Assembly: GCA_016218545.1 (NCBI GenBank)
Contig: JACRDQ010000030.1
Location: 256,172 to 320,171 of the forward strand
Direction: 5' to 3'
DNA: 64,000 nt
Source of the DNA: Elusimicrobiota bacterium
Lineage (GTDB): Bacteria; Elusimicrobiota; Elusimicrobia; UBA1565; UBA9628
The position numbers and the translations under genes are program-made. Each line of letters begins with the position of its first letter. Within the stretch, counting starts at the first letter, position 1. This document shows, piece by piece, positions 6,406 to 49,213 of the stretch. Under the pieces are notes generated by a model. It worked only from the letters and a program-made list of their open reading frames with translations, was not told where the DNA came from and ran no database searches.

Positions 6406-6602
6406 GGTCCCTCCCGGTCCTCCGCGCCCCAAGACTACCATGATTGGCCGACGGAATCAACCTCGCGCGGGGCCCTGCCCGGGGCGGTTAGGTAGAACTA
6501 CGGAGTGCCCCTTGGGGCTGCCACGGATTGTGTCCCGGCCGGGGGTTGGGGTACCATGAAGTACCGCCCGGCTCCTCGACACGGCCGGGCAGGAGGACCT
6601 CG

Positions 6603-7295
6603 ATGGACTTCTCAAAGCCGCTCTCCATGACCCCTGAAGGACTCGGTCCGCACGCGCACGCCGCCCTCATCCACCTCTCCCGCCAGGAACAGCTCTCCTT
6701 CGTCGTGCCCTATCACCGCTCAGGGCTCGAGCGCGGGGAGAAGTGCGTCTGTGTGGCCGACGCCGACGGCGTCGAGGCCCTGTGGGCCGCCTTGAGGGCC
6801 GCCGGGGTCGACGCGGCCGGGGCCCTGGCCAAGGGGCAGCTCGCGAGCCTCTCCCCCGAGGAGGTCTACCTGAAGGACGGCCGCTTCGACCCTGCCCCGA
6901 CCTTGGCCGTGTTTCGGGGAGCCATCGAGGAGGCTCGCCGGCAGGGGTTCTCCGGGCTGCGGGTTTCCGCGGACATGACCTGGTCCTGCGGCGGGGCCGC
7001 GGCCATGCCGCTCCTGGCGGACTACGAGGCCGAGGTCAACCGCCTCTTCGAGGACCACCCCTTCGGCGCGGTCTGCCAATACGAATACGGCCGCTTCTCC
7101 GCGGACGCCCTGACCAGGGTCGTCTATACCCACCCCTTGGTGATCTTCGGCGGCAGGGTGCACTGGAACCCCTTCTTCATCCCGCCGAACGAGTACCTCA
7201 GGCCGCGGGACCCCGACGCGGAGCTCACGCGCGTGCTGAGCATGCTCTGCCGGGCGTCCTCCATGCGGGAGCGGCCCGTCCCCGTCGTCGTCTGA
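6603..7295 (+). CDS. MEDS-domain sensory protein (methanogen/methylotroph DcmR sensory domain)
   Basis: Translation starts at MDFSKP after a strong AGGAGG SD. Motifs HAALIHLSRQEQLSFVVPY..GEKCVCVAD..LRVSADMTW..YEYGRF match my memory of the MEDS family. Confidence 0.5.
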   Translation: MDFSKPLSMTPEGLGPHAHAALIHLSRQEQLSFVVPYHRSGLERGEKCVCVADADGVEALWAALRAAGVDAAGALAKGQLASLSPEEVYLKDGRFDPAPTLAVFRGAIEEARRQGFSGLRVSADMTWSCGGAAAMPLLADYEAEVNRLFEDHPFGAVCQYEYGRFSADALTRVVYTHPLVIFGGRVHWNPFFIPPNEYLRPRDPDAELTRVLSMLCRASSMRERPVPVVV

Positions 7296-7314
7296 CGGTC
7301 GGGCCCCCCCGCCG

Positions 7315-8064
7315 ATGAGTTATAATGGAAGGGTGACCCCTGGCAAGGCCGACACGAGCGGGCAGGAGGGGATCCGCTATAAGATCCTGACGGTGGATGA
7401 CGACGCCGAGTGCCTCTCCATGCTGCGGGTCTGCCTGAGCCGAGCCGGCCACACGGTGCTGGCCGCGCGCTCCGCCCGCGAAGCCCTGCTGGCCGCTGTG
7501 GACTCCGGTCCGGACCTCGTCATCTCGGACGTCCAGATGGCGGGCGATGACGGCTTCGAGCTCTCGCGCCGCCTCAAGGCCGGCCCCGCGACCGCGCGCA
7601 TCCCCATCATCCTCCTGTCCGGCGCCAGCAAGGATGTCCGGGACCAGCTCGAGGGCTTCGGCCTCGGGGTCGACGACTATCTGATCAAGCCTTTCGAGCC
7701 GGCCCTCCTCCTGGCCAAGGTCCACGCGGTCCTGCGGCGCTACGCCGTCGCCGAGGAGCTGCGGGACGTGGTGAAGTCCAGGGGCGTGGAGCTCGACGTG
7801 CAGGCGCGCACCGTGTCCTGCTCGGGGTCCCCGGTCGCGCTCAGCCGCAAGGAGTTCGACCTGCTCATCACCCTCATCCGCAAGCGGGGCCATGTCTTGA
7901 GCCCGTCGTTCCTCCTGGAATCGGTCTGGAGCCAGGACCTCGCGGAATACAACGATCCGCGCACGGTGAAGGTCCACATCTCGTCCCTGCGAAAGAAGCT
8001 GCCGCCCGCCGTGGCGCGGCGCATCATGACCGTGCCCGGCTCCGGCTACCGCTTCGACGCCTAG
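7315..8064 (+). CDS. OmpR/PhoB-family response regulator (receiver plus winged-helix domains)
   Basis: The receiver has ILTVDDD ... DLVISDVQMAGDDGFEL ... DDYLIKPF. The C-terminal winged helix has LSRKEFDLLITLI..RTVKVHISSLRKKL. Confidence 0.85.
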   Translation: MSYNGRVTPGKADTSGQEGIRYKILTVDDDAECLSMLRVCLSRAGHTVLAARSAREALLAAVDSGPDLVISDVQMAGDDGFELSRRLKAGPATARIPIILLSGASKDVRDQLEGFGLGVDDYLIKPFEPALLLAKVHAVLRRYAVAEELRDVVKSRGVELDVQARTVSCSGSPVALSRKEFDLLITLIRKRGHVLSPSFLLESVWSQDLAEYNDPRTVKVHISSLRKKLPPAVARRIMTVPGSGYRFDA

Positions 8065-8170
8065 GCGCCGGCGGGCTTCTGCCGTCGACCGCGTCCCTGG
8101 CTTGACCTTTTTTTTACCGCCATCCGGCACACTATGATTGGGGACGGCGGACGTCGCGCCGTACGATGCC

Positions 8171-10285
8171 ATGGAAGAAGACAAGAACAAGAAACTGGCC
8201 TTACGCATCGCCTCGTTGTTGGACGACGTCTCGGAAACGCCGGAGCCCCGGGGCTCCGGCGCTCCGAGCCAGCCGGTCATCTCGCTGAGACCCGCCGTGG
8301 TGGAGGCCCTCCCCGCGGGCGCGGATCTCGGCTCTCCCGCGGTCCAGGCCCCTTCCGAGGTCCTGGCCTCGCCCGAGGTCGGGTCCGCTGTGATGGATAT
8401 CCTGCCCATCTGGGCTGACCCCGACTTTCCTGCGGAGCAGGCCGTGCCCGCGCCGGCCGAAGGGGCCGCGGCCAGCGCGGCCCCCAAGAGGTCCGTGCTG
8501 GTGGTCGACGATGACCGGGACTACCGGCGGATGGTCCGGGCCCTGCTTTCCGGCAACGGCTATGACGTCTACGAGGCCGAGGATGGGCGCCGGGCTCTGC
8601 AGTTGATCGCGCTGCACCGTCCGGACCTGGTGCTCGTGGACTTCAACATGCCGCGGATGAACGGCTACGAGATGATCCAGGAGGTGCGGAGCCGGTTCGA
8701 GACCCGCGCCATTCCGATCATCATGTTCACCGGCGCTTCCAACCGGAGCCACCTGCGGAGCCTGGGCATGGCTATCTCGGATTTCCTGGAGAAGCCGGTG
8801 TCCAATGTCAGGCTGCTGGAGAGCATCTCCAGCGTGCTCGGCGCGGAGCCGTCTCCCGAGCTCATGGGAGCGGAGTCCGCCCCGTCTCCCCGGATCGTTG
8901 CGCCGCCGAAGGCTCCGGAGACGACGCCGTCCCCGAAAGTCGTCGCAGCCGAAACCATGGCTGAGAAGCCTCCGGCGGCGCCGGCGGAGCCCGCTCCGAC
9001 GGGCCTGCCGCCGGAGCCGCTCGAAGAAGGGGACGAGGACGGGACCGAGCTCCTGCAGATCGAGGAGGAGAAGAAGGAGGAGGAGAGGCAGGAGGTCATC
9101 AGCCTCGAGCACCAGGCCAATGAGTCCCCGGTCATCAGCCAGGTGAACCGCATCCTCGTCAAGGCCGTGGGGATGCGCGCCTCCGACATCCACATCGAGC
9201 CTCAGGAGAAGCACATCACGGTCCGCGTGAGGGTCGACGGCACTCTCAAGCTCCTGTGCACCCTGCCCCTCTCCATCCATCCCCGCCTGAGCGCCCGCAT
9301 CAAGATCATGTCCAGCCTGGTCATCACGGAGAGACGCCTTCCCCAGGACGGGCAGTTCAAGACCCAGATCAGGGGCAGCCGGGTCGAGTTCCGGGTGAGC
9401 ACGCTCCCGTGCCTGCACGGCGAGAAGATCGTCATGCGCATCTTGGGCACCAGCAAGCTCAACGCCGATCTGGCCCAGATGAGCCTCCGTCCCCGCGACC
9501 TGGGCTGCGTGGAGAGGGCGCTCAGGACCCCTCACGGCCTCATCCTCGTGACCGGCCCCACCGGGAGCGGCAAGACCACCACCCTCTACACCATGATCAG
9601 CGTCCTCAACAAGCCCGAAGTCAACATCCTGACCGCCGAGGACCCCGTGGAGTACGAGGTGCCGGACATCTCGCAGGTCAAGGTCCTGCCGTCCATCGGC
9701 CTGACCTTCGAGTCCGCTCTGCGGGCCTTCCTGAGGCAGGACCCGGACATCATGCTCATCGGCGAGATCCGCGACCTGGAGACGGCCAACATCGCGGTCA
9801 AGGCCTCTATCACCGGACACCTGGTCTTCTCCACCCTGCATACCAACGGCGCCGTCGCCACCGTGACGAGGCTCGTCCACATGGGGGTGGCGCCCTATCT
9901 CGTCGCGGCCAGCGTCAAGCTCGTGGCGGCCCAGCGCCTGGTCCGGGACCTCTGCCCGTCCTGCAAGGTCCCCGGCGAGGTCTCCGACGACGAGAAGAAG
10001 TTCCTCGCGGAGGAGGAGGTCGCCAGGCTCCGATCCGTCTGGCGGAGCGCGGGGTGTCCCGCCTGCCATCAGACGGGGTACTCGGGGCGCTCGGCCCTCT
10101 TCGAGATCATGCCCCTGGACTCGGCGGCCATGCGCCAGCTCATCTGCGCCGGAGACAAGGCGGAGGAGCTCAACCGTCTGGCCCTTGCGGAGGGCATGAC
10201 CACCCTGCGGCAAGCCGCCTTGGAGGCGGTGGCGCGGGGCACGACCTCGTTGAGCGAGGCGCTCAAGGTCATGCTGGGGGGATGA
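8171..10285 (+). CDS. GspE/PilB-family secretion ATPase with an N-terminal disordered segment and a receiver (REC) domain
   Basis: The REC domain is VLVVDDDRDYRRMV..DLVLVDFNMPRMNGYE..EKP. The ATPase core has SDIHIEP, Walker A GPTGSGKTTT, DIMLIGEIRD, and the tetracysteine CPSC..CPAC. The start could instead be the TTG at 8138; the ATG at 8171 is used here. Confidence 0.8.
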   Translation: MEEDKNKKLALRIASLLDDVSETPEPRGSGAPSQPVISLRPAVVEALPAGADLGSPAVQAPSEVLASPEVGSAVMDILPIWADPDFPAEQAVPAPAEGAAASAAPKRSVLVVDDDRDYRRMVRALLSGNGYDVYEAEDGRRALQLIALHRPDLVLVDFNMPRMNGYEMIQEVRSRFETRAIPIIMFTGASNRSHLRSLGMAISDFLEKPVSNVRLLESISSVLGAEPSPELMGAESAPSPRIVAPPKAPETTPSPKVVAAETMAEKPPAAPAEPAPTGLPPEPLEEGDEDGTELLQIEEEKKEEERQEVISLEHQANESPVISQVNRILVKAVGMRASDIHIEPQEKHITVRVRVDGTLKLLCTLPLSIHPRLSARIKIMSSLVITERRLPQDGQFKTQIRGSRVEFRVSTLPCLHGEKIVMRILGTSKLNADLAQMSLRPRDLGCVERALRTPHGLILVTGPTGSGKTTTLYTMISVLNKPEVNILTAEDPVEYEVPDISQVKVLPSIGLTFESALRAFLRQDPDIMLIGEIRDLETANIAVKASITGHLVFSTLHTNGAVATVTRLVHMGVAPYLVAASVKLVAAQRLVRDLCPSCKVPGEVSDDEKKFLAEEEVARLRSVWRSAGCPACHQTGYSGRSALFEIMPLDSAAMRQLICAGDKAEELNRLALAEGMTTLRQAALEAVARGTTSLSEALKVMLGG

Positions 10286-10286
10286 T

Positions 10287-11048
10287 ATGCCCGGCATGCC
10301 GTTGGTCGAGGCCTTTCGGGGCGACCTCACGACCCAGGAGCTCTGTCGTCGGGGACGCCTCAAGCTCAGGCGTTTCGATCCTCCCGGCTACGCGGAGGCC
10401 GTCGCCTTCTTCTCGGACGCGCGGGAAGGCGATCCGGAGTGCGCGGTCTCCGTGGCCGCCCTGGCCGAAGCCTACTCGCACTGGGGTTTCGCGAGGAAGC
10501 TCATAGGGCAGGAGAGCGAGAGCTATTTCCTCCTGGCTTTCGAGAACGCCTGCTTGGCGCTGGAGATGGCCCCTGAACTCGCCGAGACGCACCGGGCCAT
10601 GGCCGTCTGCCTGAGGCACCGGCCGCGCCGCGGCCCCGAGCAGGGACTCGCCGAGGCGTCGGCAGCGGTGAGGATCAACCCTTACGACGCCATGTCCTGC
10701 TACGAGCTCTGGCGGGCGATGGGCCATGACCCCGAGTCACCCATGATCCACAAGGCCCTGGCGCTCGATCCCGCGCTGCTGACCGTCAACAATGACCTGG
10801 CGGTGTCGCTCATGGAAGCGGAGCGCGCCCAAGAGGCCGGCTTCCATCTGCGCCAGTGCCTGCGGGTCAATTACGAGAACGCGGTGGCCCGATACAACAT
10901 GGTCCTGCTCCTCGCCTGCCGCGGCAAGACCGAGCAGGCGCAGACCCTGCTCGAGGCCTGGCTGAAGGGGCCCGATTTCGAGCCGCTGGTGCGCAGCGGG
11001 AACGCGTCGCTGGCTGACCCGCGCTCCACGGGGGGGATCCTCTTATGA
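10287..11048 (+). CDS. TPR-like repeat protein
   Basis: A helical repeat protein whose start is coupled to the GspE stop and whose end overlaps the kinase start. Confidence 0.55.
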   Translation: MPGMPLVEAFRGDLTTQELCRRGRLKLRRFDPPGYAEAVAFFSDAREGDPECAVSVAALAEAYSHWGFARKLIGQESESYFLLAFENACLALEMAPELAETHRAMAVCLRHRPRRGPEQGLAEASAAVRINPYDAMSCYELWRAMGHDPESPMIHKALALDPALLTVNNDLAVSLMEAERAQEAGFHLRQCLRVNYENAVARYNMVLLLACRGKTEQAQTLLEAWLKGPDFEPLVRSGNASLADPRSTGGILL

Positions 11049-13216
11049 ATCGCTTCCAATCTCCGAGCCAAGATGCCGGGGGCAAGACGCCCGATCAACT
11101 CGGCGCAGAGTTCGTCCTCGAGTTGGGAAGGGCCGTCAAGGTCGTGTCCCTGTACTACGCGAACCACCCGACCGCCCTTCAGACCCTCCGGCAAGTCCAC
11201 GCCATCCTGGAGCGGCTGTTGACCGGCCTTTCCGCGGGGCGCGTCACCTTCTCCCTGGCGGCCGGACGCTGGCTCAGGGATGGTTCCCCCCTGCCTGCCC
11301 CGGGTCCGGGCGCGGACTCCCTGCTCGGCGTGTTCGAGACCCACTCCATCGAGAGCCTCACCTTCCTGGGAGGCATCAGGCCCTTCGAGCTGGTCGCTCT
11401 GGCCGAGGTCGCGGCTTCCGTCCCGACGCGTCCGGGCCGCGCCGCGCTCCAGGAGTTCCTCCAGCAGAGAGGAGTGACCCACATCAAAGCGGACATCGAG
11501 CACTATTCCAAGGAGTCGGCTCCGCAGGGCTCGGACGGTTCCCTGGCGTCCGGCTTGCCGGCCGCCTCCTCGTCCGCTGCCAAGCCCCCTGTCGCGCCTT
11601 CCGTTCTCAGGCCTGCCGCGCCTGCGCCCGCTGGCAAGCCTTCAGCGCCTGCGTCCGCTGCCAAGCCCTCCGCGCCTGCGCCCGCTGGCAAGCCTTCGTC
11701 GCCTGCGCCCGCTGCCAAGCCCTCCGCGCCTGCGCCCGCTGGCAAGCCTTCGTCGCCTGCGCCCGCTGCCAAGCCCTCCGCGCCTGCGTCTGCTGCCAAG
11801 CTTGCCGCGCCGTCGCCTTCGGTCGCTCACAGCGTCCCGGCGCAGCCTCCCAAGCCGGCTCTCCCGCCCGTAGAGGTCCGTGCCTCCGCGGCCGGGATGT
11901 GGGGCCCGCCGTCGAGCCCTGCTCCCGACTCTCACGGGGACAGGCTTGGCGTCAGTTTCGGCAGCGTGCTTCGCAAGCTCGTGGAGACCGCGGTGCAGGA
12001 TCCCGACGAGAGGTCCCACATCTACGAGGACGTGGTGGCCATGGTCAAGGAGACCTTGGACCGCCACGTCGACCAGGCGACGCAGGCGCTCTCGGAGGAG
12101 AAGGCGCGCATCGTCAGGCAGGCCGCCAGGACCGAACGGGTGCTCACCACGGTGGCGGACGGAAAGTTCACCGTGGATAAAGAGGGAAGGGTCCTCATGA
12201 TGAACGCCAGCGCCGAGATGATCACGGGAAAGCGTCTGGCCGACCTCGCGGGCAAGCACATCACCGAGGGCGTCAAGGAGGGGGAGCACATGGTCGCGCT
12301 CGCCGAGGACCTGGCGTCCCCGGCCGTGGACGGAGCAGGGGTCACGGTCGTGGCCGATGAGGCGGTGGGCGGCGCCATGCGCCGCTCCCTGGCCCTGGTC
12401 CGAGACGACGCGGGCCGCGTGGTCGGCACGTACGCCTCCCTCCCCGACGCCGCCAAGTTCAAGGAAGCCCAGCGCCTGCAGGAGGAGTTCCTCTCCCGGG
12501 TGACGCACGACCTCCAGTCCCCGCTGGCCGCCATCTGCAGCGGACTCGAGCTCCTCGCGGACAAGGTCAGCTCCGTGGGCGGTCCCGAGACGGCCCAGTA
12601 CATCGACATCTGCATGCGCAACAGCCGTCACCTCTCGGGGATGATCCGCGAGATCCTCGATTTCTCGAAGCTCGACTCGGGCAAGATGACGGTGCACCCG
12701 GCCCCTGTCTCGGCCTCAAGCCTCCTCAAGGAGGCGGTGGAGAGCCTCCAGCCCTGGGCCAAGACCAGGAAGCTCCGCCTGGAAGCGCGTTCTGCCCACG
12801 CGGATTTCTCGGTGCTGGCGGACCAGCCGCGCGTCGTCCAGGTGCTGACCAACCTCATCTCGAACGCGGTCAAGTCCACAAAGGAAGGGGGCTCGATCAC
12901 CGTGGCGGCGGTCCCGGCAGCGGAGGACGGGCAGGGGATCTTCGCGGTGAAGGACACGGGGAGCGGGATCTCCCCTGAGGACCTCGGCCGCATCTTCGAG
13001 AAGTTCGTCCAGGTCGGGGACGGCCGCAGGGACGGGGTGGGACTCGGGCTTTCCATCGTCCAGGAGTTCGTCCGATTGCACGGCGGCGCGGTCTGGGCCG
13101 AGAGCGAGCCCGGCAAGGGTTCGGTGTTCTACTTCACGCTCCCCTTGTCGCAAGCCGGAGTCATCGGCCCCGCGGCGCAGGAGGTCCTGCCGCCTTCGGG
13201 GCGGCCCCGGCACTGA
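11045..13216 (+). CDS. Sensor histidine kinase with an N-terminal domain, a Pro/Ala-rich repeat linker, a PAS-like region, HisKA and HATPase_c
   Basis: H-box SRVTHDLQSPLAAI, N-box NLISNAVKST, and G-boxes DTGSGI and GVGLGLSIV. It shares an operon with the regulator, the REC-GspE fusion and the TPR protein. Confidence 0.8.
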   Translation: MNRFQSPSQDAGGKTPDQLGAEFVLELGRAVKVVSLYYANHPTALQTLRQVHAILERLLTGLSAGRVTFSLAAGRWLRDGSPLPAPGPGADSLLGVFETHSIESLTFLGGIRPFELVALAEVAASVPTRPGRAALQEFLQQRGVTHIKADIEHYSKESAPQGSDGSLASGLPAASSSAAKPPVAPSVLRPAAPAPAGKPSAPASAAKPSAPAPAGKPSSPAPAAKPSAPAPAGKPSSPAPAAKPSAPASAAKLAAPSPSVAHSVPAQPPKPALPPVEVRASAAGMWGPPSSPAPDSHGDRLGVSFGSVLRKLVETAVQDPDERSHIYEDVVAMVKETLDRHVDQATQALSEEKARIVRQAARTERVLTTVADGKFTVDKEGRVLMMNASAEMITGKRLADLAGKHITEGVKEGEHMVALAEDLASPAVDGAGVTVVADEAVGGAMRRSLALVRDDAGRVVGTYASLPDAAKFKEAQRLQEEFLSRVTHDLQSPLAAICSGLELLADKVSSVGGPETAQYIDICMRNSRHLSGMIREILDFSKLDSGKMTVHPAPVSASSLLKEAVESLQPWAKTRKLRLEARSAHADFSVLADQPRVVQVLTNLISNAVKSTKEGGSITVAAVPAAEDGQGIFAVKDTGSGISPEDLGRIFEKFVQVGDGRRDGVGLGLSIVQEFVRLHGGAVWAESEPGKGSVFYFTLPLSQAGVIGPAAQEVLPPSGRPRH
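11630..11819 (+). repeat. Seven tandem 27-nt units, including a perfect 54-bp duplication, encoding (A/G)KPS(A/S)PAPA inside the kinase gene
   Basis: Segments 11658-11711 and 11712-11765 are identical in sequence. Flanking units are degenerate copies. Confidence 0.7.
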
Positions 13217-15710: not shown

Positions 15711-15839
15711 ATGGCAAAAATACCCGGGAAAATGGGGAAAAGCCCGCCGGGTCGGGAAAAACATGATTTCCGTCATTTGAATTAAACGTCCCAAACGGAT
15801 AAAATATGTTTTGCCCTTGAGTTCTTCCGGGGCCTTCCA

Positions 15840-16805
15840 GTGCCGACCCGAACGCAGACGACGACCAGCCTCGAGGCTTCCCTGGGACGGGTGCGCGCAG
15901 GCATGCAAGCCCGCGCCAAGCGCATCTCCGGCCGCGTGGGCTCCGCCCTGGCCGAGCACGTGTCCCGGCCGGGCAAGATGCTCCGGGCGAGGTTCGCGGT
16001 CCAGGTCGGGGCCGCCCTCGGGGTGGCGCCGGGAAAGACCGAGACGGTCGCCCGCGCCATGGAGCTGGCGCACAACGCCTCTCTCCTCCACGACGATTGC
16101 GTCGACGACGCCTCCCTGCGTCGGGGCCTGCCCACGCCCAACAGCGTCTACGGCTCGACCGTGGCGCTCCTCCTGGGGGACATCGCCTTCACCCAGTCGC
16201 TCGAGGAGGCGCTCGAACTCGGCCCCAAGGCCGTGGAGCGCCTCGTGAGCGCGGCGCGCGAGATGGCCATCGGCGAGCTCCAGGAGGAGTTCCTGCGCGG
16301 CTCCGTGGACGTGACCCTCGAGTCCTACATGGGGGTCGCGGCGCGCAAGACCGGGGCCCTCTTCGAGTGGGGCGGCTTGACGCTCTCGGACCTAAGCCCC
16401 CTCGAGCACGCGGCCGCCGACCCCGCCAGGCTGGGCTCGGCGCTCGGCATCCTCCTGCAGATGGTCGACGACATCCACGACTACACCCTGACGGACGCCG
16501 TGGCCGGCAAGGAGCGGGCCAAGGACGCCAAGATCGGGCGCGTGACCCTTCCCGGGGTCTTTGCGCTCGCGGACGCCTCCCGCCGGGGGCGCTTCCTCGA
16601 GTTGTGGGCCGCGCTGCGCCGGGACCCGCGCGCCGCCTCGGACCTGGCGCGCTTCCTCGACGAGAGCGGGTCGCTCGACGAGGCCCGCGCCGAGTGCCGC
16701 AAGGTGGTCGGGACCATCCTCGAGCTGACCCGGCGCCTGCCGGTCCGGGGAGAGGTCGACGAGGTGGCCGAGTTCGTCTCGGCCATGGCCGAGAGGGAAT
16801 TCTGA
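15840..16805 (+). CDS. Trans-polyprenyl diphosphate synthase (IspB/hepta- or octaprenyl-PP synthase family), or possibly a ComQ-like isoprenyl transferase
   Basis: GTG start. First Asp-rich motif LLHDDCVDDASLRRG, second motif MVDDIHDY, and GKERAKDAKIGRVTLP. It is the first gene of the radical-SAM operon. Confidence 0.85.
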   Translation: MPTRTQTTTSLEASLGRVRAGMQARAKRISGRVGSALAEHVSRPGKMLRARFAVQVGAALGVAPGKTETVARAMELAHNASLLHDDCVDDASLRRGLPTPNSVYGSTVALLLGDIAFTQSLEEALELGPKAVERLVSAAREMAIGELQEEFLRGSVDVTLESYMGVAARKTGALFEWGGLTLSDLSPLEHAAADPARLGSALGILLQMVDDIHDYTLTDAVAGKERAKDAKIGRVTLPGVFALADASRRGRFLELWAALRRDPRAASDLARFLDESGSLDEARAECRKVVGTILELTRRLPVRGEVDEVAEFVSAMAEREF

Positions 16806-17002
16806 TGGGCTACGCCGACCTCATCCGGCGGGCCTGGCGGACCGGGCGCTTCGCCGCCTCGGTCCGGTCGTCCGGGAAGAAGGGCGCCGCGGGCGTCCGT
16901 CCCGGGGAGAGCCGCGGCTCCATCCGCGGCGAGATGGAAGAGATCGTCCGCCGCGAGTCCGCCGACGCGCTCGGCTTCCTCGCGCCGCGCGGGGAGGGAA
17001 TC

Positions 17003-17254
17003 ATGAAGCTCGCACCGTTCGTGAAATTCCGTGAAGAGAAGTTCGGCGCGGTCCTGTTCGAGACCCGTTCCGAGAAGGTGTTCACCCTCAATCCGACGGC
17101 CGCGGACGTGGTGCGGGAGCTCCTCGCCGGCGCCTCGGAGGGCGAGATCGGAGAGCGCCTCAAGGGCCGCTACAGCGACCCCTCGGGCAGGCTCGCCGAC
17201 GAGGCCAAGGCCCTCGTGCGCCAGCTCCGCGACAAGGGGCTCATCGCGGACTAG
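17003..17254 (+). CDS. PqqD-family peptide chaperone (RiPP recognition element)
   Basis: MKLAPFVKFREEKFGAVLFETRSEKVFTLNPTAADVVRELLAGASEGEIGERL..LRDKGLI has the PqqD/MftB pattern. A strong SD (GGGGAGGG) sits 5 nt upstream of the ATG at 17003. The in-frame extension back to 16805 is possible but less likely. Confidence 0.7.
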   Translation: MKLAPFVKFREEKFGAVLFETRSEKVFTLNPTAADVVRELLAGASEGEIGERLKGRYSDPSGRLADEAKALVRQLRDKGLIAD

Positions 17255-17255
17255 C

Positions 17256-18254
17256 ATGGCTTCGAGGAAGGACGCGGTCAAGGCCGGAGGCCGGGCGTCC
17301 CGGGCGCCCTTGGAAGAGGCGTTGGCGCCCGGGATGCGGGCGCCGCTCTACATCGGCTGGCAGCTGACCAATGCCTGCGACCTGGCGTGCGTCCACTGCA
17401 TCGAGGAGTCCGGGCCGGGCCGCGCCTTCAAGGACGAGCTGACCCGGGAGCAGGCCTTCCGTATCCTCGAGCAGATCAAGACCGAGCAGGTGCCCTACGT
17501 CGCCTTCTCCGGGGGCGAGCCCTTCCTCCACCCGCACTTCCTGGAACTGGCCGCGTTCCTCGGAGACGCCGGGGTGTCGCTCAAGGTCGAGACCAACGGC
17601 CGCCACCTCACCGAGGCGGCCGCCTCGGCGCTGCGGGACCACGGAGTCCGGGCCGTGCAGGTCAGCCTCGACGGCGCCACCCCCGAGGCCTACCGCAAGG
17701 TGCGGCCCTCCGGCGACCACGCCCGGGTCCTGGCAGGCATCCGCCTCCTGCGCTCCAGGGGCGTGGAGGTGGAGGTCAACTTCGTCCCGACGCGGCACAA
17801 CGTCCATGAGATCGGAGCCGCCGTGGACCTGGCCTTCAGCGAGGGGGTCTCCGGCTTCTACACGGGCAGGCTCATCCTGGCCGGCCACGCCGCCAAGGCG
17901 CGGGACCTGGCCCCGACCCAGGAGCAGTACGACGCCTTCTTCGCGTGCCTCAAGGCCAAGGCCCAGGAGTACAAGGGCCGCATGACCGTGCGCTATCACG
18001 AGCTGGGCATCGCGCAGGAGGTCCGCTACCGCATGGCCAACCCCGCGGCCCTCTTCGTCATCCTGCCCGACGGCAGGGTGAAGCTCCTCAACGCCCTGCC
18101 GTTCGTGTGCGGCGACCTGCGCGAGCAGAGCCTCACCGAGGTCTGGAAGGCCTTCCTCGCGGGCTGGAAGTCGCCGCGGGTGGCCGACTTCGTCGGCCGC
18201 CTGGAGGCCGACCCCGGGCTCCTGCAAGGACTGCACCGATGGATCCCTTTGTGA
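17256..18254 (+). CDS. Radical-SAM enzyme, PqqE/MftC-like core without the full SPASM cysteine set (paralog 1)
   Basis: WQLTNACDLACVHC is a CxxxCxxC motif. FSGGEPFLHPHF is the SAM-binding motif. The C-terminus ILPDGRVKLLNALPFVCGDL looks like a vestigial half-SPASM with a single Cys. Confidence 0.85.
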   Translation: MASRKDAVKAGGRASRAPLEEALAPGMRAPLYIGWQLTNACDLACVHCIEESGPGRAFKDELTREQAFRILEQIKTEQVPYVAFSGGEPFLHPHFLELAAFLGDAGVSLKVETNGRHLTEAAASALRDHGVRAVQVSLDGATPEAYRKVRPSGDHARVLAGIRLLRSRGVEVEVNFVPTRHNVHEIGAAVDLAFSEGVSGFYTGRLILAGHAAKARDLAPTQEQYDAFFACLKAKAQEYKGRMTVRYHELGIAQEVRYRMANPAALFVILPDGRVKLLNALPFVCGDLREQSLTEVWKAFLAGWKSPRVADFVGRLEADPGLLQGLHRWIPL

Positions 18255-19198
18255 CCGAGTCCGGCGTGGAGACCGACGGCCGCGCCGCTCCGGCCCGCGG
18301 CGGCGGGAGCGGGCGGCCGAATCTGGCCCTGCGGATGGCGTCTGCGGTGCGCTACCGCTTCTTCCTGTACGCGGGACTCCTCCCGTACTTCCTCGGCGCG
18401 GCCTGGGCCCTGCGCATGGAGGGAGCCTTCGCGCCCGGCCGCTTCTGGCTGGGCCTGCTGGGCATCGGCCTGTCCGTCGTGGGTGTTGAGTCCTTCAACG
18501 AGTACTTCGACGCGCGCATGGGCACGGACCGCGTCTTCAACCCTTCCGACGACGAGTACATCCCCGCCTGGATGCTCTGGCTGGGGGTCGCGGCGTTCGC
18601 GGCCGCGGCGTGCGTGGGCATGGCCCTGGCCCATGCCGGAGGCTGGCCCATCCTCCTCTACATGGGGCTGGGCGGCATGGCCGCGGCCTTCTACGTGGGC
18701 CCGCCTTTCCGCTGGGCCTACCTGGGCCTCGGCGAGACCTCGATCGCCTTGTCCTACGGGCCCTGGATGACCCTGGGCAGCATCCACCTGCACACGGGCG
18801 CTTTCTCCTGGCGCGGCCTGGCGGCCGCGCTCGTGCCCGGCTTGCTGGTGGCGTCGCTCGCCGTGGTCAACGAGATCCCGGATTTCCACCAGGACCGGCT
18901 CGTGGGCAAGCGCAACCTCGTGGTGCGGCTGGGCCGCAGGAACGGGGTCGCCCTGTACCTCGCCCTGGCCGGGGCGGGCTTGGCCGCGTGCTTCGCAGGC
19001 GCGGCCGCGGGCTGGTTCCCGGTCGCGTGCGGCCTGGCCGGGGCCCTGGGCCTGCCGTGCTGGTTCTCGAGCGCTCGGACCGCGGTCAAGGCGTGGGACA
19101 CGCCGCGGCTTTTCGTGCCCGCGGTGCGGGACATCGTGCAGTGCTATCTCGTGACCGTGAGCGCCTTCATCATGGCGCTCGCCGTGAGGCTGCCGTGA
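18239..19198 (+). CDS. UbiA-family membrane prenyltransferase (MenA/UbiA-like)
   Basis: A polytopic protein. NEYFDARMGTD is an NxxxDxxxD-like Asp-rich motif, and a second motif is VNEIPDFHQD. It overlaps the upstream radical-SAM gene by 16 nt and the downstream one by 4 nt. Confidence 0.75.
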   Translation: MDPFVTESGVETDGRAAPARGGGSGRPNLALRMASAVRYRFFLYAGLLPYFLGAAWALRMEGAFAPGRFWLGLLGIGLSVVGVESFNEYFDARMGTDRVFNPSDDEYIPAWMLWLGVAAFAAAACVGMALAHAGGWPILLYMGLGGMAAAFYVGPPFRWAYLGLGETSIALSYGPWMTLGSIHLHTGAFSWRGLAAALVPGLLVASLAVVNEIPDFHQDRLVGKRNLVVRLGRRNGVALYLALAGAGLAACFAGAAAGWFPVACGLAGALGLPCWFSSARTAVKAWDTPRLFVPAVRDIVQCYLVTVSAFIMALAVRLP

Positions 19199-20109
19199 GG
19201 ATCGCGTCCTTCGACGTTCCCCTGGCCGCTGCCTGGCGCCTGACCGACCGGTGCGACCTCTCCTGCCGGCACTGCCTCAACGCTTCCGGGCCCAAGGCTG
19301 ACACGGCCGCCGAGCTCTCCCGGCCCGAGGCTCTCAAGCTGGCCCGGAGCATCGGCTCAGCCCAGGTCCCCTACGTCATCCTCTGCGGGGGCGAGCCCAT
19401 GCTGAGCCCCGACTTCTGGCAGGCGGCCGAGACCCTGGGCGAGGCAGGCGCGTGGCTCAAGGTGGAGACGCACGGCCAGAACCTCGGGCGCACCCAGGCG
19501 GAGCGCCTGGCCAAGCTCCCCATCCGCTCGGTCCAGGTCTCTCTCGACGGGGTCACCCAGCAGGCTTACGAGTCCCTGCGGCCAGGGGCCTCCCTGGCCA
19601 AGACCTTGGAAGCTTGCCGCGAGGTGCGGCGTCAAGGCATGCCCCTCGAGATCTCCTTCGTCCCGGTCCAGGGCAACATCCACGAGGCTCCGGCGGTCAT
19701 CGACCTGGCCCTGGACCTGGGCGCCTTCCGGTTCAACACCGGGACCCTCATCAAGCGCGGCCGCGCCGCAGCCGCTTGGAAGAAGCTCCTTCCTGATGCC
19801 GAGTCCATGGCAGGCTTGCTCGCGGTCCTCACCCGTCGCGAAGCCACCCTGGCCGGGAGGCTCGAGCTCTGCTTCAGGCCTTTCAATTTCGAAGACCAGG
19901 TCCGCGCCGAACGCGCGGAGCCCTCAGGCACGCTCACGATCCTGCCTGACGGCAAGGTCCCTGTCTCGGCCTCCTCGGACGTCGTCTGCGCCGACCTTCG
20001 GACGCAGACGGTCAGGGAGGCCTGGCGCGCTTACTTGGCGGCGCACGGCAAGGGGCCACGATCGGAAAGATGGGTCGGCTCGTGTCTTGAGCCGGCTACC
20101 CGGTCCTAG
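19195..20109 (+). CDS. Radical-SAM enzyme, paralog 2
   Basis: The GTG start overlaps the UbiA stop (GTGA), with GAGG 5 nt upstream. Motifs WRLTDRCDLSCRHC, CGGEPMLSPDF, KVETHG, VQVSLDG, LPDGKVP..VVCADL. Confidence 0.75.
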   Translation: MRIASFDVPLAAAWRLTDRCDLSCRHCLNASGPKADTAAELSRPEALKLARSIGSAQVPYVILCGGEPMLSPDFWQAAETLGEAGAWLKVETHGQNLGRTQAERLAKLPIRSVQVSLDGVTQQAYESLRPGASLAKTLEACREVRRQGMPLEISFVPVQGNIHEAPAVIDLALDLGAFRFNTGTLIKRGRAAAAWKKLLPDAESMAGLLAVLTRREATLAGRLELCFRPFNFEDQVRAERAEPSGTLTILPDGKVPVSASSDVVCADLRTQTVREAWRAYLAAHGKGPRSERWVGSCLEPATRS

Positions 20110-20129
20110 GCCGGGATTTAGGAGACAGC

Positions 20130-20255
20130 ATGAGAGACAAGAAGAACGTGACGGATGGAAAGGCGAAGGCCGACAAGAAGCCCGTGTGGCAGACCCCTTC
20201 TCTCGAAGAGGTCACCGAGCGTGTCATGGCCCAGCCGTACATCAGGTTCACGTGA
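20130..20255 (+). CDS. Candidate 41-aa RiPP precursor peptide
   Basis: MRDKKNVTDGKAKADKKPVWQTPSLEEVTERVMAQPYIRFT. GGAGA lies 5 nt upstream of the ATG. It is the only gap in an otherwise overlapping operon, and its TGA stop overlaps the GTG of the next radical-SAM gene. Confidence 0.5.
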   Translation: MRDKKNVTDGKAKADKKPVWQTPSLEEVTERVMAQPYIRFT

Positions 20256-21226
20256 CGCACCCGAGGGGGGCGGCGGTAGGAGACTACCGCGCCCCCCTCT
20301 TTGTCGCGTGGCAACTCACCAACCGCTGCCGCGGCCGCTGCCTGGCCTGCTGCGAGGAATCCGGTCCGGGCAAGGGAATCCGCCAAGGCGGGTCCTGGCA
20401 GGCTGAGCTCACCAAGCAGGAAGCCCTCCGCGTCAGCCGCGACATCGCGGCCTCCGGGGTCTCCTACGTGGCGTTCGGCGGGGGGGAACCCATGGAGGTG
20501 CCGCACTTCTGGGACATCCTCTCCATCCTCTCCAAGGGCGGGGTCCGCATCAAGATCGAGACCAACGGCGGGACCATCGGCCGCTCCCAGGCCAAGCGCC
20601 TCTCCGCCTTGGGCGTGTCCTCCATCCAGATCAGCCTCGACGGCCCCACGGCCCGCGAGCACGAGGCCTTGAGGCCCGGCTCGAGCTTCAACAAAGCGGT
20701 CCGGGCGGTCCGCTGTCTGGCTGAGGAAGGGCTCGGGCCTGAGGTCGTGTTCATCCCCATGAAGAGGAACGTGGGCCAGGCCGTCAAGGTCTACCGATTG
20801 GCGGCCAGTCTCGGAGCCAGGGTGCTTGCGACCGGCCCTCTCATGCGCCTGGGACGCGCCGGAGCAGCATGGAAGGAACTCGCCCCGTCGGCCGGGCGAT
20901 GGCGGACCGCGGTCCGGGCGCTCAAGGCCGAGGCCGCCCGTGCCAAGGCAGGGCCCAAGCTCTCCATCTATCCCTGGGGCATCCAGAGGGAGATCGAGAC
21001 CAGGCTCGAGCATCCCCAGGCCATGGTCCTCGTGGTGCCTGACGGCAAGGTCAAGCTCCTCAATGCCCTCCCTTTTGCTCCAGGCGACCTGCGGCGACAC
21101 TCCCTGGCCCAGGCCTGGACGCGCTGCCTCGGAGCTTGGCGCGACCCCAAGGTGCGGGCTTTCTGCCGCAAGGCCGTGAAGGACCCCGGGCTCCTGGCGC
21201 ACGCCAACGAATGCTGGCCCGCCTAA
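20252..21226 (+). CDS. Radical-SAM enzyme, paralog 3, closest to paralog 1
   Basis: WQLTNRCRGRCLACC is a CxxxCxxC motif. Also FGGGEPMEVPHF, KIETNG, IQISLDG, VVPDGKVKLLNALPFAPGDLRRHSLAQAW. The start is inferred as the GTG at 20252; no alternative in-frame start follows the downstream GGAGAC. Confidence 0.7.
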   Translation: MTHPRGAAVGDYRAPLFVAWQLTNRCRGRCLACCEESGPGKGIRQGGSWQAELTKQEALRVSRDIAASGVSYVAFGGGEPMEVPHFWDILSILSKGGVRIKIETNGGTIGRSQAKRLSALGVSSIQISLDGPTAREHEALRPGSSFNKAVRAVRCLAEEGLGPEVVFIPMKRNVGQAVKVYRLAASLGARVLATGPLMRLGRAGAAWKELAPSAGRWRTAVRALKAEAARAKAGPKLSIYPWGIQREIETRLEHPQAMVLVVPDGKVKLLNALPFAPGDLRRHSLAQAWTRCLGAWRDPKVRAFCRKAVKDPGLLAHANECWPA

Positions 21227-22286
21227 TCCAAGCAGGCTGAGAAGAGCGCGGGGAGCTCGCCGAGCCTGCCCGCCTCGGCGAGCTTGCCCAGGTCGAAGAG
21301 GATGAGGCCTCCGGAGCCTCCCTGCCAGGCGGCGTCGGCGGCGGCCCTGAGCTCGCCGGGTCCGAGGGGATGCTCCGCGTCTCCCACGAAGATGATGGGC
21401 CAGACCGGCTTGCCCGAATCGGCCTTGACGGCCATGGAGGCGTCCGTGATCCAGGACGCGGGCCTGCGCAGGAGCGCGTGGTACGCCATGGGCGAGACCA
21501 CGTCCGCTGCCCTGCCCATGAGGCGGTGGTCCTGGCCGAGGATCTCGAGGACGGCCCCGCGCTTCTCCGAGCGCTCCCAGGGCACGGCGAAGTAGCCCAC
21601 CAGGGCCGCGGGGTCGGCCGCGTGGACCGCGTCTGCGACCTCGCTGACGAGGCCCGCGATGCTCGCGGTCTTGAACGCGGTCCAGCGCTCCTTGTGGTCC
21701 GACAGGATCCAGCGCGCCTTCTCCCTGGCCGTGAGCTCCTCCGGGACCGCGACCCCGGTTTCCTTGCGGAACTCCCTCAGGCACACCGGGCAGAAGCAGG
21801 TCTGCTCGAGATGGGGCTCGGGGACCTCCCAGTGGCCGGGATAGCGGATGAAGTCGAGCCACACGCCGTCGACTTCCTGCTTGCGCACCAGGGACACGGC
21901 GCGCTTCTTGATGTCCAGCCTGAGCCAAGTCTGGTTGGGGCAGACGGCGGCGTACCACTTGACCTTGGCGAGGGGTTCGCCGACCTCGCTGACCGGCCTG
22001 CTCTCGGGCCGCGTCTTCCAATGACGCTCTCCCGCGAAGGCTGTGAGCTCCGCGAACACGCGGATGCCACGGCCGCGCAGGGCCTTGCGGAGGAGCGGGT
22101 CCTTGTAGCCGCCGAAGACCGCGTTCACGCCCCAGGAGGAGAGGGCCTCGGCGATCCGCTCCGGGGTCTTGCCCTTGAAGGCCGCGGACTTGGGGTCGAA
22201 GCCGTAGACCCCGCACACCGGTCCGGCGTCAGCGGCAAGAGCGGGCTGGACCGCGAGGATGAGGCCGGCGAGGATGAGGAGGAGCA

Positions 22287-34010: not shown

Positions 34011-34754
34011 ATGTTCCAGAGCACGTCGTCCGTCCTCATCATCCTCGTGGTCGCGGCGTTCCTGTCCATCAAGCTGGTCAATGAGTACGACCGGGTGGTG
34101 GTCTTCGTCCTGGGCCGGCTCTGGAAGGTCTGCGGCCCCGGGCCCATCATCGTGGTGCCCGGCATCATGCGCGGCCAGCTGGTGAGCCTCCGGACCGTGG
34201 TCCTCGACGTGCCCCCGCAGGACGTCATCACCAAGGACAACGTCTCCATCAAGGTCAACGCCGTCGTCTATCTGCGGGTGGTGGACGCGCAGCGGGCGGT
34301 CATCCAGGTGGAGAACTACCTCTATGCCACGAGCCAGTGGGCGCAGACGACCCTGCGCTCGATCCTGGGCAAGTCCGAGGTCGACGAGATCCTGGCGCAC
34401 CGCGACAAGATCAACAACGAGCTCCAGCAGATCCTCGACGCCCACACCGAGCCGTGGGGCGTGAAGGTCTCCAACGTCGAGATCAAGAACGTGGACTTCG
34501 CGCAGGAGATGCTGCGCGCCATGGCCAAGCAGGCCGAGGCCGAGCGCGAGCGCCGCGCCAAGGTCATCCACGCGGAAGGCGAGCTCCAGGCCTCCGAGAA
34601 GCTGGGACAGGCCGCCAAGGTCCTGTCGGCCGACCCGGCCTCCATCCAGCTCCGGTACCTGCAGACGCTCTCTGAGATCGCGATCGACAAGAACTCCACC
34701 ACCATCTTCCCGGTGCCGGTGGACGTGATCTCGATGTTCGTCAAGAAGACTTGA
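34011..34754 (+). CDS. SPFH/band-7 (stomatin-like) membrane protein
   Basis: An N-terminal TM helix followed by the stomatin core [36 protein letters not shown]. Confidence 0.8.
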
Positions 34755-49192: not shown

Positions 49193-49213
49193 AGCATTTG
49201 ATATGATGGTCGG

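Follow-up and report, generated by a model that had tools for sequence, protein, structure and literature searches.

A conserved operon of peptide, PqqD, radical-SAM and UbiA genes in Elusimicrobiota as a candidate pathway for a prenylated, peptide-derived membrane molecule

Introduction

To our knowledge only two redox cofactors are derived from a ribosomal peptide, pyrroloquinoline quinone (PQQ) and mycofactocin, and both are soluble. The head groups of all respiratory quinones that we know of come from chorismate-type small-molecule metabolism. Here we describe a seven-gene operon of Elusimicrobiota bacterium (assembly GCA_016218545.1), found in a stretch of 64,000 nucleotides (nt) of contig JACRDQ010000030.1 (positions 256,172 to 320,171), which is called the window in the following. 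It encodes a small peptide, a PqqD-family peptide chaperone, three radical S-adenosylmethionine (SAM) enzymes (rSAM1, rSAM2 and rSAM3), a membrane prenyltransferase of the UbiA superfamily and a polyprenyl diphosphate synthase (ips). We know of no PQQ cluster that carries a UbiA prenyltransferase together with a polyprenyl synthase, as this operon does.

The PQQ precursor PqqA reacts at E16 and Y20, a numbering that agrees with the PqqA sequences compared here, and its leader is bound by PqqD (PMC10906245). A survey of bacterial quinone pathways from July 2026 lists no peptide or radical-SAM route (PMC13386864). In the full-text literature searched, beyond whose reach lie many manuscripts of subscription journals, no description of a system like the present one was found. 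A preliminary description of the window had regarded the operon as a candidate for a new pathway leading to a ribosomally synthesised peptide with post-translational modifications (RiPP) or to a prenylated cofactor derived from a peptide, and our analysis supports this view with some corrections. We propose, with about even confidence, that the operon is of the RiPP type and makes a membrane molecule which is derived from the peptide, carries a polyprenyl chain and serves quinone-dependent respiratory complexes, most likely as a redox cofactor or quinone-like carrier.

Results

A small peptide with an invariant core

Seven tightly coupled open reading frames (ORFs) occupy positions 15840-21226 of the + strand in the order ips, PqqD, rSAM1, UbiA, rSAM2, peptide and rSAM3 (Table 1), and all seven are present exactly where the preliminary description had placed them. 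Related loci were collected in two ways. A scan of one genome per GTDB species with the UbiA protein gave 245 loci, 80 of which were retained for comparison, and a peptide-first scan of JGI metagenomes gave more than 600 matches and 551 confirmed contigs, with 80 loci compared. Altogether the locus set comprised 177 loci, each reaching at most 10 kb to either side of the match, and 167 of them carry the peptide.

Table 1. Coordinates of the operon genes, of elements within the precursor gene and of candidate expression signals in the window
Feature	Position	Strand	Evidence and remarks
Candidate sigma70-like promoter TTGAAT-17-TAAAAT	15777..15805	+	Consensus match only; upstream of first gene
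Trans-polyprenyl diphosphate synthase (ips), accessory	15840..16805	+	PF00348, 139 bits
PqqD-family peptide chaperone (RiPP recognition element)	16805..17254	+	PF05402, 43.8 bits (cutoff 23.4), residues 82-147
Radical-SAM enzyme 1 (rSAM1)	17256..18254	+	PF04055; orthologous to the one rSAM in the minimal module
UbiA-superfamily membrane prenyltransferase, MenA/UBIAD1-like	18239..19198	+	PF01040, 56.6 bits (cutoff 34.2)
Radical-SAM enzyme 2 (rSAM2)	19195..20109	+	PF04055; paralog specific to the three-rSAM form (type I)
Shine-Dalgarno sequence AGGAGA of peptide gene	20120-20125	+	Direct sequence reading; ends 4 nt before ATG 20130
Precursor peptide, 41 residues, MRDKKNVTDGKAKADKKPVWQTPSLEEVTERVMAQPYIRFT	20130..20255	+	Variable Lys-rich leader, recognition-like motif, invariant C-terminal core
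Recognition-like motif W20-x-x-P-x-L-E-E-V28 of peptide	20187-20213	+
Peptide core V32-T41, VMAQPYIRFT	20223-20252	+
Radical-SAM enzyme 3 (rSAM3)	20252..21226	+	PF04055; type I-specific paralog, translationally coupled to peptide gene

The core decapeptide VMAQPYIRFT is identical in 145 of the 167 peptide-carrying loci, and among the 80 UbiA-found loci it is identical wherever the peptide could be read. Except for the motif W-E-[TK]-P-x-[LMI]-E-[ED]-V, the leader differs between loci in both length and sequence. In 76 loci the core is written with three to four synonymous codons at each of its Ala, Pro, Arg and Thr positions (Ala: GCC 31, GCT 21, GCG 22, GCA 2; Arg: CGG 38, CGC 35, CGT 2, AGG 1), with not a single amino-acid change. 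Since the synonymous codons vary freely and the residues never do, purifying selection on the translated peptide is unambiguous. Judged by this codon pattern the small ORF is a genuine gene, and with its invariance at the protein level, free synonymous change and variable leader the core appears to evolve like that of a cofactor precursor. What characterises a RiPP is a short precursor gene whose leader varies and whose core is conserved, selected as a translated product, as is the case here.

An exhaustive profile search with the peptide retrieved 97 representative clusters with the C-terminal consensus [VIL]-M-A-Q-P-[YF]-I-R-F-T. Phe replaces Tyr in four clusters, which share one leader type and form a coherent clade; T, I or V can stand in for Met, and R for Gln. 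Because the Met, Gln and Tyr positions vary, the strict core is P-aromatic-I-R-F-T. The peptide is almost never called by gene callers: among 5.8e9 proteins it is found as a called ORF in only 12 clusters, all of them labelled 'hypothetical' or unnamed, and even at E <= 10 it matches no family of Pfam or NCBIfam.

At three loci (L117:6951-7103, L127:9923-10075 and L096:3609-3752) a precursor gene encoding VMAQPYIRFT has no PqqD, rSAM or UbiA gene beside it. In L127 it lies between genes similar to NuoF and NuoG and a HemN-like radical-SAM gene, with a weaker set of genes similar to nqrA-F (24-51% identity) about 4 kb upstream, and in L096 it is followed by an uncharacterised ORF of 250 residues and a polyprenyl synthase. 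The maturation genes of these loci may lie elsewhere, or the genes may be orphan copies of the precursor.

Conservation of the module in two architectures

In all 80 UbiA-found loci the order PqqD-rSAM1-UbiA-rSAM2-peptide-rSAM3 was recovered by tblastn wherever the contig reaches. The same three-rSAM order occurs in metagenome-assembled genomes (MAGs) of Beta-, Gamma- and Alphaproteobacteria and in most of the 80 peptide-found metagenome loci. Such a recurrence goes far beyond chance. In a second architecture the genes follow as peptide, PqqD, one rSAM and UbiA, sometimes with a polyprenyl synthase thereafter. The 167 peptide loci divide into 102 with three rSAMs, 44 with one, and 21 that are too short or ambiguous. 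In the one-rSAM systems the enzyme scores best by bit score against rSAM1 (38-42% identity), UbiA is 36-48% identical to that of the window, and a UbiA gene is present at 19 of the 20 loci with enough downstream sequence.

The three-rSAM form is hosted by Elusimicrobiota and Proteobacteria, many of the latter being Burkholderiales-type Betaproteobacteria. Hosts of the one-rSAM form are a Planctomycetota MAG, soil Nitrososphaerota/Thaumarchaeota and others. Since the one-rSAM loci lie in Planctomycetota and Nitrososphaerota and the three-rSAM loci in Elusimicrobiota and Pseudomonadota, the module spans two domains of life, and the link between peptide and UbiA is kept across both gene orders and both domains. 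The top matches to the UbiA proteins of Elusimicrobiota and Proteobacteria were all MAGs or metagenome contigs, with no cultured carrier seen among them.

According to these comparisons the conserved core is made up of peptide, PqqD, one rSAM and UbiA, and the three rSAMs are a lineage-specific elaboration of a one-rSAM ancestral module. The ips gene adjoins the module in 53 Elusimicrobiota loci and is absent next to all proteobacterial and most one-rSAM loci; by its distribution the polyprenyl synthase is an accessory gene and not part of the core. The preliminary description had suggested to look for co-occurrence of peptide, rSAM, PqqD and UbiA, and the four do occur together across phyla and domains. 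The block of genes that it described is conserved, and the seven have to be narrowed to a core of four, with ips as accessory and the three rSAMs as lineage-specific. It had also considered that the operon might be annotated already, but we met generic labels only; the thaumarchaeal genes, for instance, are named just 'PqqD family protein', 'radical SAM protein' and 'prenyltransferase'.

All-against-all clustering of the flanking ORFs at three- and one-rSAM loci revealed no conserved protease, methyltransferase, hydroxylase or exporter, and comparison of the flanks linked no men, mqn or ubi gene to the module at any locus. Genes for pqqB, pqqC and mftD/E/F were likewise absent from the flanks in the window and not conserved at related loci.

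Some single loci depart from the two architectures. In an Elusimicrobiota-type locus (L009:10062-11564) the peptide gene and rSAM3 are separated by an ORF of 500 residues that contains a Fic motif (HPFADGNGRVARA) and whose insertion interrupts the usual coupling of the two. A split rSAM3 gene was considered here and rejected, as the inserted Fic-domain ORF adjoins an intact rSAM3. Locus L153:2672-6086 consists of nqrC-F, the peptide, two tandem rSAM genes and UbiA, with PqqD not detectable, and may represent a stage between the one-rSAM and three-rSAM forms. At a one-rSAM locus with the Phe variant of the core (L087:2869-3981) the gene next after UbiA encodes a protein that has an LPG_synthase_TM (flippase-like) domain, possibly a further link to membrane lipids.

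The chaperone and the radical-SAM enzymes

For all seven proteins the curated equivalog cutoffs of NCBIfam (release of June 2026) were applied, and no curated model reaches its cutoff for any of them. The Pfam assignments anticipated in the preliminary description (PF00348, PF05402, PF04055 three times and PF01040) were all recovered, with the exception of the SPASM domain PF13186, which matched none of the three rSAMs.

The PqqD protein of the window has an N-terminal extension of 66 residues that is specific to Elusimicrobiota, and strong conservation starts at M67 (MKLApfVKFREEKFG). Since the G+C content at third codon positions (GC3) of the extension is 0.95, it is coding. Orthologs from Proteobacteria, Planctomycetota and Thaumarchaeota have 82-103 residues, and homologs are abundant, which removes the earlier concern that the ORF might stand alone. 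The protein scores under the equivalog cutoffs of PqqD (TIGR03859, 19 vs 46), MftB (TIGR03967, 23 vs 33) and lasso-PqqD. In both architectures a PqqD-type binder and a modifying enzyme adjoin the precursor, as in a RiPP system.

Conservation of Cys residues was judged over 60-74 sequences per rSAM paralog. In rSAM1 the motif CX3CX2C (C41, C45, C48) is invariant in 73 sequences, as is C285. In rSAM2 the motif is also invariant, and C141, C226 and C265 are conserved at 92-96%; these additional Cys could bind an auxiliary cluster with a reduced site. In rSAM3 the motif is joined by an adjacent invariant Cys, forming a CC pair (C26, C30, C33, C34). Beyond CX3CX2C, rSAM1 thus has one conserved Cys, rSAM2 three and rSAM3 one or two. 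The C-terminal Cys-rich domain of SPASM/twitch maturases is absent from all three enzymes, in which the seven-Cys SPASM motif was not found either. The three share 36-41% identity with each other. Each falls into an ortholog group of its own, so the triplication is older than the spread across phyla. At almost all loci of type I the stop codon of the peptide gene is followed directly by rSAM3.

The top NCBIfam match of all three rSAMs is MftC, with 99-128 bits (TIGR03962, cutoff 265), and the PqqE model TIGR02109 (cutoff 381) gives 83, 87 and 54 bits. AhbD, NirJ and AhbC also rank among the top matches, far under cutoff (AhbD 120 vs 500), and no MqnC or MqnE model occurs among the best 25 of the 48-69 families matched per rSAM at E <= 0.01. 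A membership in MqnC/MqnE or MoaA, which had been named as the outcome that would speak against a new pathway, is therefore not indicated, all matches being under the curated cutoffs. A model of rSAM1 calculated with AlphaFold2 (AF2; mean predicted local distance difference test, pLDDT, 76.6) has PqqE as its closest fold in the PDB (6c8v, E = 1.8e-15), followed by SkfB and SuiB, and a sequence search of the PDB agrees with this match to peptide maturases. Hence the earlier label 'PqqE-like' is borne out by the predicted fold of rSAM1 and does not extend to the SPASM cysteines.

The prenyltransferase and the polyprenyl synthase

The UbiA protein combines PF01040 with two invariant Asp-rich motifs (NEYFDxxxGTD and DFHQD) and, in the model, with a multi-helix membrane fold. 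Its best NCBIfam match is MenA (NF004751, 102 bits vs a cutoff of 264; TIGR00751, 63 vs 102); models of chlorophyll synthase match weakly, and in the same scan the haem O synthase model gave no match. The AF2 model is all-helical (pLDDT 73.7) and resembles most closely UBIAD1 (8djk_B, E = 8e-6), the human MenA-type enzyme, followed by digeranylgeranylglyceryl phosphate (DGGGP) synthases and archaeal UbiA. An identical protein (100%) is encoded in an Elusimicrobiota MAG, and more than 2,300 relatives exist. Automatic pipelines label the protein MenA (1,4-dihydroxy-2-naphthoate octaprenyltransferase). The MenA of menaquinone biosynthesis was rejected as its identity, given the scores under the cutoffs and the missing linkage to men or mqn genes at the loci compared.

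Both DDxxD motifs that had been noted in ips were located, DDCVD at residue 85 and DDIHD at residue 210, with the small residues A and S at positions -5/-4 before the first motif. The best NCBIfam matches are solanesyl-, heptaprenyl- and octaprenyl diphosphate synthases, all far under cutoff (best 118 vs 450). The motifs and the small residues suggest that a medium or long chain is formed. The GTG start at 15840 is uncertain, as conservation begins near residue 17.

Respiratory neighbourhood of related loci

Electron-transport genes neighbour the module at 40 of the 167 loci. At 24 loci it lies inside or directly beside an operon for an NQR-type NADH:quinone reductase, on the same strand. The complete arrangement [ips]-nqrABCDE-pep-pqqD-rSAM-ubiA-nqrF was found with ips in L097 and without it in L094; in L153 and L140 nqrABCDEF precedes the module, and L138 ends just after the peptide. 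In L094, NqrC (145.4 vs 144) and NqrD (249.5 vs 235) pass the curated cutoffs, but NqrB (333 vs 414), NqrF (287 vs 295), NqrE (210 vs 248) and NqrA (200 vs 450) do not, and NqrA has an RnfC-like Fe-S C-terminus. The complex linked to the module thus appears to be a divergent member of the NQR type. An unusual set of redox genes surrounds the ips-nqr-peptide operon of a Planctomycetota locus (L091:312-4091 and 7472-8113): upstream lie a NarJ-like chaperone, a fusion of a dimethyl sulfoxide (DMSO)-reductase type II haem b subunit with a cupredoxin, a Fer4_5 protein and a further cupredoxin, and a gene of the FMN_red family is inserted between nqrB and nqrC.

Nine proteobacterial loci have frdCAB next to the module. 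Scored against the fumarate reductase models that have one cytochrome b subunit, all three products exceed the curated cutoffs, and we take the enzyme to be of the Wolinella type, which uses a low-potential quinol. An outer-membrane cytochrome conduit similar to MtrC/MtrA/MtrB adjoins the module in seven loci. According to genome and protein look-ups, all proteobacterial loci with enough flanking sequence have NQR, Frd, Mtr or HemN nearby; in two of them just a fragment of SdhB is left. The common denominator of the NQR-type, Frd and Mtr partners seems to be their dependence on the membrane quinone pool. Pseudomonadota lost low-potential quinones early and reacquired them sporadically, and it was predicted that such a gain should bring a fumarate reductase (PMC11707229). 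Lineages of groundwater Elusimicrobia encode complexes I and II and, in lineage V, also a cytochrome bd oxidase (10.1101/765248); each of these enzymes depends on quinones.

Operon layout and transcription signals

The frames of the operon overlap or abut at nearly every junction. The TGA of ips (16803-16805) and the ATG of PqqD (16805) share one base; an overlap of 1 nt had been described correctly here, with the sequence given as ATGA, which in fact reads TGATG. One nucleotide separates the PqqD stop (17254) from the ATG of rSAM1 (17256). The overlap of 16 nt between rSAM1 (stop at 18254) and UbiA (ATG at 18239) and the GTGA overlaps of 4 nt at 19195-19198 (UbiA/rSAM2) and 20252-20255 (peptide/rSAM3) agree with the earlier reading. 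The only real gap, 20 nt long (20110-20129), precedes the ATG of the peptide gene (20130) and does contain the ribosome-binding site assigned to it; the gap of 1 nt before rSAM1 had gone unmentioned.

GC3 amounts to 0.81-0.95 across every called frame, including the N-terminal extension of PqqD. The candidate promoter is the sole promoter-like site between 15500 and 21500 (0.2 expected from shuffled sequences) and sits in an AT-rich divergent intergenic region, and a scan found internal terminator-like sites no more often than expected by chance. Since a convergent gene of the - strand ends at 21223, against the end of rSAM3, the operon ends with rSAM3. While the overlaps are observed directly, co-transcription of the seven genes as one unit is the likely consequence of this layout.

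Remainder of the window

The window has a uniform G+C content of about 70%. Its other genes include purH, ligA, nusB, speA, valS, murC and ksgA together with signalling genes (Pfam), a housekeeping context that is not island-like. Away from the operon a fourth radical-SAM gene (34751-35857, 368 residues, PF04055) overlaps the start of valS with its stop by a few bases. On the - strand, two adjacent ORFs of 503 and 542 residues (1287-4393) have strong coding GC3 and no Pfam match at E <= 1e-5, and the gene convergent with rSAM3 (21223-22216) comprises a stretch of 331 residues that has no Pfam match either and belongs to a longer ORF with a signal-peptide-like segment. A MEDS-domain sensor, an OmpR-type response regulator and a fusion of a T2SSE/PilB-like ATPase with a receiver domain follow in a row at 6528-10285, an uncommon arrangement. 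The histidine kinase at 11045-13216 has a long linker rich in Pro, Ala and Lys, with repeats of the type AAKPSAPAPAGKPSSPAP, between its N-terminal and sensor/kinase parts. At 45726-53259 a protein with an adenylate/guanylate cyclase domain, two TPR-repeat proteins and a TPR protein with a C-terminal Ser/Thr kinase are encoded by four large genes, overlapping or close to each other, that may form a signalling module.

Discussion

A proposed pathway and its standing

Maturation and prenylation of the peptide probably form one coupled pathway. We envisage that the seven genes would be transcribed as one unit and translated in a coupled manner, and that the precursor would be bound by the PqqD-type chaperone via its W-x-x-P-x-L-E-E-V leader motif, in analogy to PqqA and PqqD. 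Cleavage of SAM at the CX3CX2C cluster of the radical-SAM enzymes would then yield the 5'-deoxyadenosyl radical, by which residues within P-[Y/F]-I-R-F-T would be cross-linked or oxidised. The ancestral step is presumably that of rSAM1, which would be enough in the one-rSAM systems, with rSAM2 and rSAM3 adding steps specific to the three-rSAM form. A long polyprenyl diphosphate would be supplied by the IspB-like synthase and transferred by UbiA to the modified core, where the acceptor would most simply be an aromatic carbon, as in MenA; an ester of the C-terminal carboxylate (compare chlorophyll synthase) or an ether of Thr (compare DGGGP synthase) are alternatives. Judging from the gene neighbourhood, the lipidated product may stay in the membrane and serve NQR-type NADH:quinone reductase, fumarate reductase and Mtr conduits. 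Arguments for and against a role in respiratory electron transport are about balanced in our view, and for the product to be a diffusible quinone-like carrier appears possible but doubtful.

Several observations weigh against the proposal of a redox cofactor or quinone-like carrier. Every step after translation has been deduced. The core tolerates Phe for Tyr in one clade and varies at Met and Gln. Because the clade with Phe at this position is coherent, the Tyr hydroxyl is not essential, and this in turn weakens both the idea of a quinone ring derived from Tyr and that of a UbiA-like prenylation ortho to a phenol. We therefore downgraded the Tyr-derived quinone as specific chemistry: from the quinone-like polyprenylated peptide moiety envisaged in the preliminary description the prenylated membrane cofactor is retained, and the simple origin of the quinone in Tyr is weakened by the Phe clade. 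The clustering of flanks gave no conserved hydroxylase or methyltransferase that could account for quinone oxygens, no protease for release of the leader and no exporter, and the rSAMs lack the auxiliary Fe-S cysteines used by PqqE and MftC. Moreover, the Elusimicrobiota loci, the window included, have no respiratory neighbours. Proteobacteria have ubiquinone. A futalosine pathway for menaquinone is generally present in Thaumarchaeota and Planctomycetes (PMC3914697). In these groups the product is therefore probably an additional, specialised compound, and the notion of the module as a universal replacement of menaquinone was dropped in view of the futalosine genes.

Alternative products

The main rival keeps the biosynthesis and changes the product, which would be a non-redox, lipid-anchored peptide acting as small subunit, assembly factor, stabiliser or regulator of respiratory complexes. 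All of the six to ten C-terminal residues are conserved together, which is explained more easily if the peptide is kept and docks on a conserved partner, and such a peptide would tolerate the exchange of Tyr for Phe and would need no protease releasing a small head group. Accessory genes for maturation (ApbE, NqrM) are known from nqr operons, and the module can sit between nqrE and nqrF. However, the partners differ between loci (NQR-type, FrdCAB, MtrCAB or none) and have in common the quinone pool and not a protein surface, the loci of Elusimicrobiota and Thaumarchaeota are without a linked complex, and the presumed long-chain polyprenyl synthase and the MenA/UBIAD1-like transferase resemble the chemistry of quinone tails. 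We regard this explanation as unlikely, though to be taken seriously.

The layout of precursor, PqqD and rSAM is also standard for many RiPP natural-product clusters, and prenylation is known to confer activity on RiPPs (PMC12715784; PMC10853753). That the product is an ordinary specialised metabolite outside core physiology, namely a prenylated lipopeptide serving as antibiotic, signal or surfactant, is nevertheless improbable, since the cores of antibiotics and signals diversify and that of the module is conserved across two domains. No conserved exporter, immunity gene or leader protease accompanies it, and its context is housekeeping or respiratory. In addition, the RiPP prenyltransferases known to us are soluble enzymes of the ABBA or ComQ type, none being a membrane protein of the UbiA type.

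Two functions might merely be co-located, UbiA and ips providing an ordinary menaquinone-type tail, and peptide, PqqD and rSAM a separate soluble cofactor. The name MenA given by pipelines, the best family match to MenA and one locus, L088, where no UbiA adjoins the peptide, PqqD and rSAM genes, are in line with this. Yet UbiA stays far below the MenA cutoff, is nested between rSAM genes with overlapping frames and accompanies the peptide in either gene order and in both domains, and at no locus is another men or mqn gene linked. Furthermore, many hosts are Burkholderiales-type, and 825 of the 871 cases of a Men pathway in Pseudomonadota fall into five gammaproteobacterial orders (PMC11707229). 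We give this explanation a very small probability.

A modification of tetrapyrroles, in which AhbC/AhbD/NirJ-like rSAMs and a UbiA similar to haem O or chlorophyll synthase would make a prenylated haem for neighbouring cytochromes, could appeal to the rSAM and chlorophyll synthase matches and to the multihaem cytochromes, dihaem FrdC and HemN among the neighbours, and is hardly credible, given that those rSAM matches are far below cutoff and cover the generic rSAM core only, that no haem O synthase model was matched, and that the invariant peptide and the PqqD chaperone, the most conserved parts of the module, are left unexplained.

Significance

The respiratory proposal can be taken one step further, to a new class of respiratory lipid, that is, a ribosomally encoded, radical-SAM-tailored and polyprenylated carrier or cofactor as the peptide-derived counterpart of menaquinone; we put this forward tentatively. 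If true, this lipid would be old enough for Nitrososphaerota among the Archaea to share it with Elusimicrobiota, Planctomycetota and Pseudomonadota among the Bacteria. Its users would be a divergent NQR-type NADH dehydrogenase, a fumarate reductase with one cytochrome b subunit and Mtr-type conduits for extracellular electron transfer, and in respiring Elusimicrobiota it could even be the main pool carrier. A product acting as respiratory carrier would be categorically new among electron-transport lipids. The combination of RiPP logic (precursor, PqqD, radical SAM) and quinone-tail logic (IspB-like synthase, MenA-like transferase) would join two fields that have been unconnected.

With 245 species-level genomes carrying a UbiA ortholog and more than 550 JGI metagenome contigs carrying the peptide, the module is not peculiar to a single MAG, and its carriers include abundant soil Thaumarchaeota and widespread bacteria of groundwater, peat and soil. 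Because the UbiA gene is annotated as MenA, metabolic reconstructions may wrongly infer a menaquinone step in such organisms. The linkage to NQR, fumarate reductase and Mtr leads to a testable hypothesis on the wiring of electron transport in uncultured anaerobes and microaerophiles, and the minimal version of four genes is small enough for heterologous reconstitution.

Comparison with known systems

The preliminary description had set the operon apart from the pathways of PQQ, mycofactocin and futalosine, and this separation stands: defining features of the first two are missing, and no MqnC or MqnE model ranks among the best 25 families of any rSAM. The module nevertheless resembles PQQ biosynthesis in its short ribosomal precursor, whose C-terminal core is strictly conserved, in the discrete PqqD chaperone (PF05402) and in the predicted fold of rSAM1, closest to PqqE. 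The peptide also has the layout of PqqA, in which W-x-x-P is followed by an acidic and then a hydrophobic residue and, 17 residues after Trp, by an aromatic residue near the C-terminus. Unlike PqqA, the peptide has Met (variably T, I or V) at the position of the cross-linked Glu, its Tyr can be Phe, and it gives no match to the PqqA families of Pfam and NCBIfam at E <= 10. The rSAMs lack SPASM cysteines and reach 54-87 bits where PqqE demands 381, and pqqB, pqqC and pqqF are not part of the module. With no Glu-x3-Tyr pair, no equivalog of PqqE or PqqD and no pqqB or pqqC, membership in the PQQ pathway was rejected.

Mycofactocin is likewise a redox cofactor; it arises from the C-terminal end of a small precursor with the help of a PqqD-like protein, MftB, and a radical-SAM enzyme, MftC. 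The invariant, cofactor-like core of the module and the top rank of MftC among the matches of all three rSAMs recall this system, but the scores stay below cutoff (99-128 vs 265 bits for MftC, 23 vs 33 for MftB), MftD, MftE and MftF are missing, and MftA ends in Gly-Val-Tyr, whereas the core of the module ends in IRFT. On these grounds mycofactocin membership was rejected as well. Mycofactocin is also soluble, glycosylated and linked to nicotinoprotein dehydrogenases, whereas the module has prenylation genes and membrane respiratory complexes nearby.

Quinone pathways with MenA or UBIAD1 share the prenyl step with the module. Its UbiA is closest to MenA in sequence and to UBIAD1 in structure and is paired with an IspB-like synthase, and the module is found in the genome beside enzymes that use quinones (NQR-type, fumarate reductase, Mtr conduits). 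It differs from the quinone pathways in a UbiA under every MenA cutoff and in the missing linkage to men, mqn and ubi genes. The known head groups, those of menaquinone, ubiquinone, plastoquinone and methyl-plastoquinone, are made from chorismate or related small molecules and not from a ribosomal peptide.

In prenylated RiPPs (ComX/ComQ, cyanobactin F-type and PalQ-type) an isoprenoid is likewise put on a ribosomal peptide, and ComQ is a homolog of polyprenyl synthases. Their enzymes are soluble and attach C5-C15 groups to variable peptides, whereas the module has an integral-membrane UbiA and a nearly invariant peptide. The polyprenyl synthase of the module is dispensable and thus not the peptide prenyltransferase. 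ComQ/ComX-type prenylation, raised earlier as an alternative, was rejected since ips, being accessory, is missing at all proteobacterial and most one-rSAM loci while UbiA is kept. By combining features of PQQ and mycofactocin formation with a step of the MenA/UBIAD1 kind, the module would represent a new class of RiPP or peptide-derived cofactor with an unprecedented prenylation step at the membrane.

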